The position numbers and the translations under genes are program-made. From Chlamydiae bacterium RIFCSPHIGHO2_12_FULL_49_11 (GTDB lineage: Bacteria; Chlamydiota; Chlamydiia; Chlamydiales; 2-12-FULL-49-11), in assembly GCA_001794905.1 (NCBI GenBank), contig MGLW01000067.1:1038-11652 (forward strand): a stretch of 10,615 nucleotides of DNA. The letters run 5' to 3'. The number at the start of each line of letters is the position of its first letter. The first letter of the stretch is position 1. Under the pieces are notes generated by a model, which was given only the letters and a program-made list of their open reading frames with translations, had not been told where the DNA came from and searched no databases. This document shows, piece by piece, positions 2,240 to 3,643 of the stretch.

Positions 2240-3643
2240 CTAGAGAAGAGCGCAGCAACAATGGTTTTTATCTGATGAAGAGGAGAAGCTTGACGTCTCA
2301 TCTATCAAAGAATGCCTTTCAATTAACGAAGAAGACATCGTAGGAGGGGTCTTTATTGGCAGAGGAGATACCGCAGCTCGCGGAAAGAATATATTCACGA
2401 GTAATACATTGAGACATGGGACTTCCTCAAAGGAGATATTAAAAGGGGATTTTTCAACAATTTCCATATTGGGCTCCGTTGGAACATCGAGAAGCGGGGC
2501 ATCTTCCAAATGGAGGTATTGTATCGATGCCTGAAGGGTCCGATGAATCAAAGATGCACTGAAGTATCTTTTCATGTTTGTTCCATTTTCAGAATTTTGC
2601 AAAACACGCACGAAAAAGGGAATCAGTTGTTTAAGTAACATTCGTTCTTTTTCAGAGGCCGTCGGAATTGCAAACATTGTTTCTTTACACACTGTAGAAT
2701 TAAATGCTCCATTCTTCCATCCAAGAAGCACGACTCCAGACCACACATCGGTCTCTTCAAGATTGACAAGCTCCTCATCGACTCTCTCTACCTTTACCTG
2801 ACCTGCATCTATCTCTAGCTTACCCGCAGCTCTTTCTGCTTCCAGCTGGTCTTCAGCCCATACACGGCTCAAAGGAGAAAAAACCGCATAGTTAATACAG
2901 TTTCCGGAAATTTTAACTATCCTCGGACAGACGGCACCTGTAGCCCATTCCCAATCAATAAGACGCAATCTCCCCCGACGACTTTGTACAATATTGGACC
3001 ACTTGATGTCTCGATGAATAATCCTCGCCTTTTGATGTAATTCTGCAATCAGACCGAACATTTGTTCGAGAAACTCCAATTTTGCACATAAGGTAGGTAA
3101 TTTACCCGGGCCAACAGAAACTCCTCCATATTTTTCAACATATATCAAGGCATTGTGATGAAAAATGAGCGGCGTAAGAATACGACAAACCATATTAGGT
3201 ACAATGCCCACCAAATATTTCTGTATCTGATATTCTCTTTTAACATCAGACATATATTCTCTGTAAACATCAGACTGAACCTCCCAATACGGATCGAAAA
3301 ATTTCACAATACACTTTTTCCATTGATGCTTATTGTCATCAATATACCACCCCGGTAGGACAGTTTTATCACACCTTTCTAAAGCAGATAATTCACAATG
3401 GTCATAAATTACGAGACTCATATGATGCGATTGCCATAGCAACATAAAAGGGTACGAACCGGCCGCTTTATTTCCCAAAAGTTTAAAATCCTCCAACGTA
3501 TCAAAGATGTATGCTCCGTCAATAACGCTTTTCAGGCGTGAGCCTAATTCCTTGAAAATGTAATCGAGCGCTTCCACTTTTTCTGCTTTTACTTCAATAA
3601 AATCGTGGGGCATTGTATGTGCAATATTTTGAAGGCTTAACAT
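2240..3643 (-). CDS. Atypical Hanks-type Ser/Thr protein kinase with a C-terminal CaaX motif (candidate effector)
   Basis: Motifs: CIVK (beta3 Lys), VKREYQI (alphaC Glu), IIHRDIKWSN (catalytic loop), LIDWE (DFG equivalent), TDVWS (alphaF). A Ser-rich tail ends NHCCCALL*. Confidence 0.85.
   Translation of the reverse strand: MLSLQNIAHTMPHDFIEVKAEKVEALDYIFKELGSRLKSVIDGAYIFDTLEDFKLLGNKAAGSYPFMLLWQSHHMSLVIYDHCELSALERCDKTVLPGWYIDDNKHQWKKCIVKFFDPYWEVQSDVYREYMSDVKREYQIQKYLVGIVPNMVCRILTPLIFHHNALIYVEKYGGVSVGPGKLPTLCAKLEFLEQMFGLIAELHQKARIIHRDIKWSNIVQSRRGRLRLIDWEWATGAVCPRIVKISGNCINYAVFSPLSRVWAEDQLEAERAAGKLEIDAGQVKVERVDEELVNLEETDVWSGVVLLGWKNGAFNSTVCKETMFAIPTASEKERMLLKQLIPFFVRVLQNSENGTNMKRYFSASLIHRTLQASIQYLHLEDAPLLDVPTEPNMEIVEKSPFNISFEEVPCLNVLLVNIFFPRAAVSPLPIKTPPTMSSSLIERHSLIDETSSFSSSSDKNHCCCALL

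Follow-up and report, generated by a model that had tools for sequence, protein, structure and literature searches.

The subject of this work is a gene for a divergent, eukaryote-like protein kinase, located on the minus strand of a 10,615-nt stretch of DNA (hereafter, the window) from the uncultured chlamydia Chlamydiae bacterium RIFCSPHIGHO2_12_FULL_49_11 (assembly GCA_001794905.1, contig MGLW01000067.1, positions 1,038 to 11,652). The encoded protein ends in a CaaL box preceded by two further cysteines and, taking the whole analysis together, we favor the proposal that it is a secreted kinase whose Cys464 is geranylgeranylated by the geranylgeranyltransferase I (GGTase-I) of the host, probably with S-acylation of Cys462 and Cys463, and that it belongs to a lineage-specific set of effectors with CaaL tails. 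An earlier note on this DNA, made from the letters of the window alone, had proposed host geranylgeranylation of the kinase and suggested a scan of the whole genome for an excess of CaaX endings. That scan proved strongly positive, with six C-x-[LM]-L ends among 1166 open reading frames (ORFs) when about 0.2 to 0.45 were expected, all six in eukaryote-like proteins.

The C-terminal tail of the kinase

The kinase gene, the elements of its tail and the adjacent terminator-like site are the following:

2240..3643, minus strand: gene of the divergent eukaryote-like protein kinase, 467 aa (ORF; the TAG stop at 2240-2242 is included)
2243..2254, minus strand: CaaL box C464-A465-L466-L467, predicted GGTase-I site (from the sequence, the genome-wide enrichment in C-x-[LM]-L ends and the CaaL/I/M rule for GGTase-I)
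2255..2260, minus strand: C462 and C463, candidate S-acylation sites (from the sequence, by analogy with SifA)
2261..2482, minus strand: disordered C-terminal linker, residues 388-461, with the Ser-rich ETSSFSSSSDKNH at its end (AlphaFold2 pLDDT below 50; beyond the ends of the paralogues)
2211..2230, minus strand: terminator-like hairpin and T-run, 10 nt past the kinase stop (consensus match only)

The last codons on the minus strand are TGT (2260-2258), TGC (2257-2255), TGC (2254-2252), GCT, CTT, CTC (2245-2243) and the stop TAG (2242-2240), and the protein ends in C462-C463-C464-A465-L466-L467, with ETSSFSSSSDKNH (residues 449-461, positions 2299-2261) directly before the first cysteine. 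The earlier note had described a CCCALL-stop following a low-complexity, Ser-rich linker, and codons 2260-2240 at the end of the 467-aa ORF agree with it entirely. Contigs assembled from two other public runs span the tail, namely X3 (covering 2100-2832) and X7 (2218-2577), both with 0 differences, while X2 leaves 2225-2254 uncovered and X4 does not include the kinase tail. Because X7 comes from a study different from that of the possible source sample and reproduces the tail without differences, the CCCALL ending is not an accident of assembly. The runs containing the window DNA are labelled as groundwater and soil metagenomes.

Kinase fold and catalytic residues

The features of the kinase domain that are relevant for its catalytic competence are listed below:

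3302..3304, minus strand: K114, beta-3 (VAIK-type) Lys (invariant column in both paralogue alignments)
2993..3016, minus strand: catalytic loop HRDIKWSN, residues 210-217 (Pfam Pkinase match; H210, D212 and N217 invariant among paralogues)
2954..2956, minus strand: D230, DFG-type Asp, here within DWE (invariant column in both paralogue alignments)
2765..2935, minus strand: charged insertion in the region of the activation segment, residues 237-293 (alignment gap in paralogues; pLDDT below 50)

An AlphaFold2 model computed with the paralogue alignment as input (pTM 0.65) showed a bilobal kinase fold with a pLDDT of 70-90 in the core, which fell below 50 at residues 237-293 (the 57-residue insert) and at 388-467, the last 80 residues, which are disordered. 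When this model was compared with the PDB by means of Foldseek, all 50 of the matches listed were protein kinases (E about 2e-7, TM 0.5-0.6 when normalized by target length), including FGFR2, AAK1, DAPK3, Aurora A and SYK. In addition, K114, H210, D212, N217, D230 and D299 are invariant in the six better-conserved members of the family, that is, the window kinase and five paralogues. The protein therefore has a divergent eukaryote-type kinase fold in which the phosphotransfer residues have been kept, and the identification as a protein kinase made in the earlier note holds in spite of a sub-threshold Pfam score.

Catalytic activity is a different matter, and three features weigh against it. 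The match to Pfam Pkinase (PF00069) reaches 26.4 bits, below the gathering cut-off of 31.7, and covers residues 191-235 only; the Gly-rich loop is non-canonical, with no GxGxxG; and the position of the alpha-C Glu seems to be occupied by an invariant Gln, Q141, as placed by eye without structural superposition. Since the Gly-rich loop departs from the canonical form and a Gln apparently replaces the alpha-C Glu, activity is uncertain, and we regard it as likely, but not assured. A protein anchored by lipids as proposed, yet acting as a pseudokinase, as a scaffold or as a kinase for a non-protein substrate, is an unlikely alternative that nonetheless deserves serious attention: besides the features just mentioned, the protein gives a weak choline-kinase-like Pfam match (E 0.0055), carries the 57-residue disordered insert past the DFG-type Asp, and has two tandem paralogues (on contig C19) that have lost the His of the HxD motif. 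Against this stands the invariance of the beta-3 Lys, the catalytic Asp, the Asn and the metal-binding Asp in the window kinase and the five paralogues.

An excess of CaaL endings in the genome

The source genome (G000) comprises 1.26 Mb in 71 contigs, with a GC content of 48.4%, and is 82% complete. ORFs were taken from stop to stop, starting at the first ATG, GTG or TTG, with a minimum of 80 aa and greedy removal of overlaps, the longest first. The resulting 1166 ORFs account for 93% of the DNA. The six of them that end in C-x-[LM]-L are given here by contig, with length, domain content and tail:

C67 (window kinase), 467 aa: divergent kinase, CCCALL
C57, 400 aa: Pkinase (4e-31), CRLL
C15, 364 aa: Pkinase (2e-22), CTLL
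C34, 341 aa: ankyrin repeats, CTML
C33, 222 aa: MORN repeats, CCTLL
C65, 2063 aa: NB-ARC plus ankyrin, CTLL

The number of such ends expected at the C-terminus is 0.21 when derived from the 72 internal occurrences of the pattern and 0.36 when derived from position-specific composition. In 20000 shuffles of the -4 column, such ends numbered 0.45 on average and never exceeded 4, and when the pattern was moved inward from the C-terminus by 1 to 40 residues the counts were 0-2 (mean 0.2). The excess depends on the combination of both parts of the motif: Cys occupies position -4 in 5 of the 21 proteins ending in LL, compared with a Cys frequency of 1.3%, whereas proteins with Cys at -4 but without the [LM]-L end are close to background (18 observed versus about 15 expected). 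The tail is found in 3/12 ORFs with a kinase signature and in 3/1154 of the remaining ones, and every carrier contains eukaryote-like domains: three are kinases (of two families), two are ankyrin proteins and one is a MORN protein. The stretches leading to the six boxes are polar and disordered, and the 20 residues upstream of each box show no similarity to one another.

Other candidate endings were considered and rejected. An 852-aa protein ending in CFIA (contig C59) was a possible farnesyl-type candidate, but it is a conserved protein whose orthologue from genome G004 has the same end. Two C.LL matches at offset 5 are due to a conserved GNCVLLRKVEL inside two tandem paralogues; these proteins, of 227 and 230 aa (G000:C22:12446-13874, minus strand), end in ...KGNCVLLRKVEL, and the C-x-L-L, placed five residues from the end, is conserved between both copies.

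Gene context of the carriers

The possibility that the genes with CaaL tails derive from eukaryotic contamination or from mis-binned host DNA was rejected, because the contigs of all six carriers have normal GC and tetranucleotide make-up, with a coding density of 88-96%, and because bacterial housekeeping genes surround the carriers, whose neighbors include lgt, ssb, nrdR, groEL, a XerD-type recombinase, ABC transporters and a gene of the DAHP-synthase family. The kinases encoded on C57 and C15 form a family apart from the window kinase and are 36% identical to each other. The second of them (in the region G000:C15:28769-32271) is flanked by a gene for a XerD-type tyrosine recombinase and by a tail-less kinase paralogue of 450 aa, and this last neighbor suggests a local duplication. 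The largest carrier (G000:C65:4433-10624, minus strand) combines an NB-ARC domain, typical of STAND NTPases, with about 18 stretches of ankyrin repeats; its architecture is that of a eukaryotic protein of the innate-immunity type, although it is encoded by a bacterium.

The carriers appear narrowly distributed. No orthologue of the C57 kinase was found in 150 other genomes of the order, where the best match showed 42% identity over about 107 residues, and in a collection of 5.8 billion proteins it matched only itself. Likewise, no orthologue of the MORN protein was found in 21 genomes of the family.

Homologues and the age of the tail

With seven further copies in G000, on C31, C66, C69 (two), C51 and C19 (two), the window kinase is one of eight paralogues, and the family is nearly restricted to this genome. 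Five of the seven were found with the single sequence, and a profile search added the two tandem, more degenerate C19 copies. The members on C51 and at C69:9125-11398 carry ankyrin-type regions at their N-terminus. A profile search among 1.84 billion representative proteins retrieved the G000 paralogues P0001, P0002, P0005, P0018 and P0019 (P0003 and P0004 would be, judging from protein length, the C51 and C69 paralogues) and a single relative from outside the genome, the distant P0006, of 693 aa and with 26% identity to one of the paralogues.

Several results obtained with these and other sequences weigh against the proposed prenylation of the kinase. The earlier note had regarded homologues without the terminal Cys motif as contrary to its proposal, and the motif is indeed present in 0/7 G000 paralogues and 0/1 outside relatives (P0006). 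An orthologue of the kinase was found neither in 40 related genomes, which gave one weak local match (E 7.6e-4), nor among the 1.84 billion representatives, where nothing beyond its own paralogues and P0006 was recovered, and a word-index protein search gave no match; since no orthologue was found, conservation under selection cannot be shown. Strain variation cannot be used for that purpose either, because all metagenome contigs aligned to the kinase gene are identical, with no variant of the tail among them. Furthermore, no C-x-[LM]-L end was detected in a 1.4-Mb sample of four sister genera belonging to the same family, which contained 1242 ORFs, or in 24 kinase ORFs that other members of the order encode. 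Finally, the ORF set is crude, having been built without a gene finder, although C-termini are set by stop codons alone.

The results from sister genera and from the kinases of the order indicate, at the same time, that the tail class is young. At the rate observed in G000, about six such ends would have been expected in the sister-genera sample (P about 0.002), compared with 0.22 expected by chance. The lack of the motif in all eight homologues was judged to be a weak objection, because the tail of the kinase is a lineage-specific appendage, located on an extension that the paralogues do not have, and because the AnkB family of Legionella is likewise variable. Thus, of the reading contained in the earlier note, the kinase fold, the position of the box at a true, disordered C-terminus and the enrichment stand, while conservation of the tail among homologues does not (0/8).

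These data also bear on the simplest of the alternatives, namely that CCCALL has no role in lipidation and arose neutrally in a paralogue that is lineage-specific, low in GC and fast-evolving. The gene is certainly low in GC (40.7%, falling to 38% at 3001-3600, compared with 48.4% for the genome and with the 54-57% reached by the neighboring htrA and the gene of an Inc-like membrane protein), the tail, which none of the eight homologues has, lies within a non-conserved extension, and there are no orthologues by which to show selection. What makes a chance ending improbable is that five more proteins of the same genome, eukaryote-like and unrelated or distantly related to the kinase, share it, when about 0.2 were expected and the maximum in 20000 shuffles was 4. 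We judge the repeated, independent occurrence of the box on effector-type proteins within one genome to be a stronger argument than conservation within a single family.

Which enzymes might modify the tail

No prenyltransferase alpha-subunit repeats were found in G000 as assembled, which points to a host enzyme as the likely modifier. Two points limit this argument: the genome is 82% complete, and the absence of a bacterial prenyltransferase is therefore not proven; and the search for the prenyltransferase beta family (PF00432) gave no match even in the controls, so it was uninformative for G000. The genome does encode two CPBP/Rce1-like (PF02517) membrane proteases (C31:35361-35645 and C68:8343-8627). 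Proteases of this family, which is common in free-living bacteria, are present in 11 of 14 control genomes, and a role for them in processing CaaL tails is not indicated.

A function of the tail inside the bacterium, be it metal binding, disulfide cross-linking or a sorting or processing signal for, e.g., one of these proteases, would find some encouragement in the two Rce1-like genes and in the fact that chlamydiae use Cys-rich, disulfide-linked envelope proteins. We consider it very improbable, since CPBP proteases are non-specific in view of their distribution in the controls, prenyltransferase alpha repeats were not found, and extra cysteines occur in 2/6 tails only, the common part being the Cys at -4 and the terminal [LM]-L. 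Moreover, inspection by eye revealed no hydrophobic core resembling that of a signal peptide at any of the six N-termini, and the domains of all carriers act on eukaryotic targets. Another host short linear motif, such as a class I PDZ-binding end (T/S-x-hydrophobic) or a di-leucine sorting signal, can be given hardly any credence, because, in spite of the Thr at -3 in 4/6 tails (CTLL in three, CTML in one) and the LL end in 5/6, position -3 is Ala in the window kinase and Arg in another carrier, whereas Cys, which neither rule requires, stands at -4 in 6/6 and is found there in LL-ending proteins well above its 1.3% background (5/21).

A proposed model for host prenylation of the kinase

The observations described so far can be integrated in a model in which host geranylgeranylation provides the membrane anchor of the kinase. 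According to it, the kinase would be exported into the cytosol of the host, most likely through the type III system, where its disordered tail would offer C464-A-L-L to the host GGTase-I, leading to the attachment of a C20 isoprenoid at Cys464. The prenylated end would then be trimmed by the host Rce1 and methylated by the host ICMT, and host palmitoyl-transferases would probably acylate Cys462 and/or Cys463. By means of the resulting double lipid anchor, the kinase would be retained at the inclusion, plasma or Golgi membrane of the host, on the side facing the cytosol, and the active, if atypical, membrane-bound Ser/Thr-type kinase would there phosphorylate targets of the host or of the inclusion membrane. 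Given that at least six proteins carry such tails, geranylgeranylation by the host would serve this lineage as a general address label.

Secretion system and neighboring genes

G000 encodes the type III export gate SctV and contains five ORFs for TLC nucleotide transporters, which is consistent with an intracellular chlamydia. Upstream of the kinase gene, the window contains the following feature:

3736..4737, minus strand: gene of an Inc-like membrane protein, 333 aa, without a Pfam family (hydrophobic segments 94-126 and 172-230)

This gene lies on the same strand, 92 nt upstream of the kinase gene, and the segment 172-230 is long enough for a bilobed hairpin such as that of chlamydial Inc proteins. 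The minus strand shows no promoter-like site between both genes, and the pair is flanked by two terminator-like sites, one at 4783-4770 and the other at 2230-2211. The two genes are thus possibly co-transcribed, as far as their arrangement allows one to say, which would be a hint that the kinase acts at the inclusion membrane.

On the other side, a gene at 1317-2210 (plus strand) converges with the kinase gene, and the terminator-like site at 2211-2230 is common to both. It encodes a 297-aa protein with degenerate short beta-type repeats (…VTVYGKLTATNS…ITVTGNAEF…) and no Pfam match at E 0.01. The window also includes, at 6318-7688 on the minus strand, a gene whose 456-aa product contains a eukaryotic F-box at residues 160-192 (Pfam F-box, 5.7e-8) and is a further eukaryote-like candidate effector. 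Together with the Inc-like and F-box genes, those for HtrA, for a PreP-type M16 peptidase and for HU are among the effector-type or chlamydia-typical features of the window.

Comparison with known prenylated effectors

The enzymology on which the model relies comes from published work. GGTase-I accepts the CaaL/I/M subset of CaaX boxes, the boxes CLLL, CQLL and CVLL are those of human Rho and Rap GTPases, and CTIL was fully geranylgeranylated in a humanized yeast system (PMC11152559). Prenylation is followed by cleavage by Rce1 and methylation by ICMT, and in Legionella seven Pel effectors require the Cys of their CaaX box to reach the vacuole membrane (PMC13081727). In the case of Salmonella SifA, geranylgeranylation by GGTase-I was accompanied by S-acylation at a neighboring Cys (PMC4951486). 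More recently, it was reported that the membrane targeting of Salmonella GtgE, which ends in CTIL, needs the Cys and GGTase-I, whereas the farnesyltransferase is dispensable; according to this 2026 paper, effector prenylation had until then been reported only in L. pneumophila and in S. Typhimurium (SifA), to which GtgE was added (PMC13423502).

The closest parallel to the G000 set is that of AnkB and the Pel/CMP proteins of Legionella, where there are also several eukaryote-like effectors per genome, and for which host prenylation of the CaaX box has been proven and its Cys found to be essential. The AnkB box varies by strain, being absent in strain Paris. There are also clear differences. 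Legionella is a gammaproteobacterium that employs the Dot/Icm type IV system, whereas for G000 the presumed route is the type III system of chlamydiae. The Legionella boxes are mostly of the farnesyl type or mixed, with PelE and PelF of the geranylgeranyl type, while those of G000 are uniformly C-x-[LM]-L. None of the Pel effectors is described as a kinase in the sources consulted, in contrast to three of the G000 carriers.

SifA is a type III effector whose end, CLCCFL, resembles CCCALL in having a cluster of Cys just upstream of a Leu-ended box, although it lacks a kinase domain and has no sequence relationship with the window kinase. Cysteines a short distance before the predicted prenylation Cys, as in the double prenyl and S-acyl anchors of the SifA/RhoB/H-Ras type, are found in G000 not only in the window kinase (C462 and C463) but also in a second protein, that ending in CCTLL. 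GtgE is a type III effector too, and the Thr at position a1 of its CTIL box matches the CTLL and CTML tails of G000; it is, however, a cysteine protease, and a single case in its genome.

With regard to the kinase cargo, prenylated eukaryotic proteins include protein kinases. GRK1, GRK7 and LKB1 are held at membranes by a CaaX lipid anchor, but these are host proteins of unrelated kinase subfamilies, with no secretion step. Conversely, LegK from Legionella, OspG from Shigella, YpkA from Yersinia, SteC from Salmonella and the chlamydial Pkn are kinases of the eukaryotic protein kinase fold that are delivered to, or act on, host cells, and we know of no CaaX box in any of them. The earlier note had described prenylated bacterial kinases as rare or undescribed. 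Literature searches for these, and for chlamydial effectors with CaaX boxes, turned up no report, although older lists of in silico candidates could include some; the one chlamydial preprint naming CAAX concerns symbiont-encoded prenyltransferase domains and not tails.

The mechanism is thus already known from the Pel and AnkB proteins of Legionella and from SifA and GtgE of Salmonella, and what is new here is the kinase nature of the cargo, together with the phylum and the secretion system that goes with it. In the broadest version of our proposal, to which we give about as much belief as doubt, GGTase-I boxes would have been acquired recently and convergently by six or more unrelated eukaryote-like proteins of an uncultured chlamydia lineage, which would thereby have adapted, not long ago in evolutionary terms, to the prenylation machinery of one particular protist host. 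This would be the first CaaX set in Chlamydiota and the first outside Legionella and Salmonella, and would include the first lipid-anchored bacterial kinases.

A CaaL set in a chlamydia would carry the host prenylation of effectors to a third, very distant phylum and to its type III system, and kinases would join the known cargo of host-prenylated effectors. The case also shows how such tails can originate, as short appendages on lineage-specific paralogues, with several independent gains within one genus. From a practical point of view, the count of a C-terminal motif compared with that at neighboring offsets provides a simple, testable genome-level criterion by which CaaX effectors of uncultured symbionts can be recognized. 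Should the kinases be active, they would be membrane-tethered bacterial kinases whose targets could be looked for on the inclusion or on host membranes.

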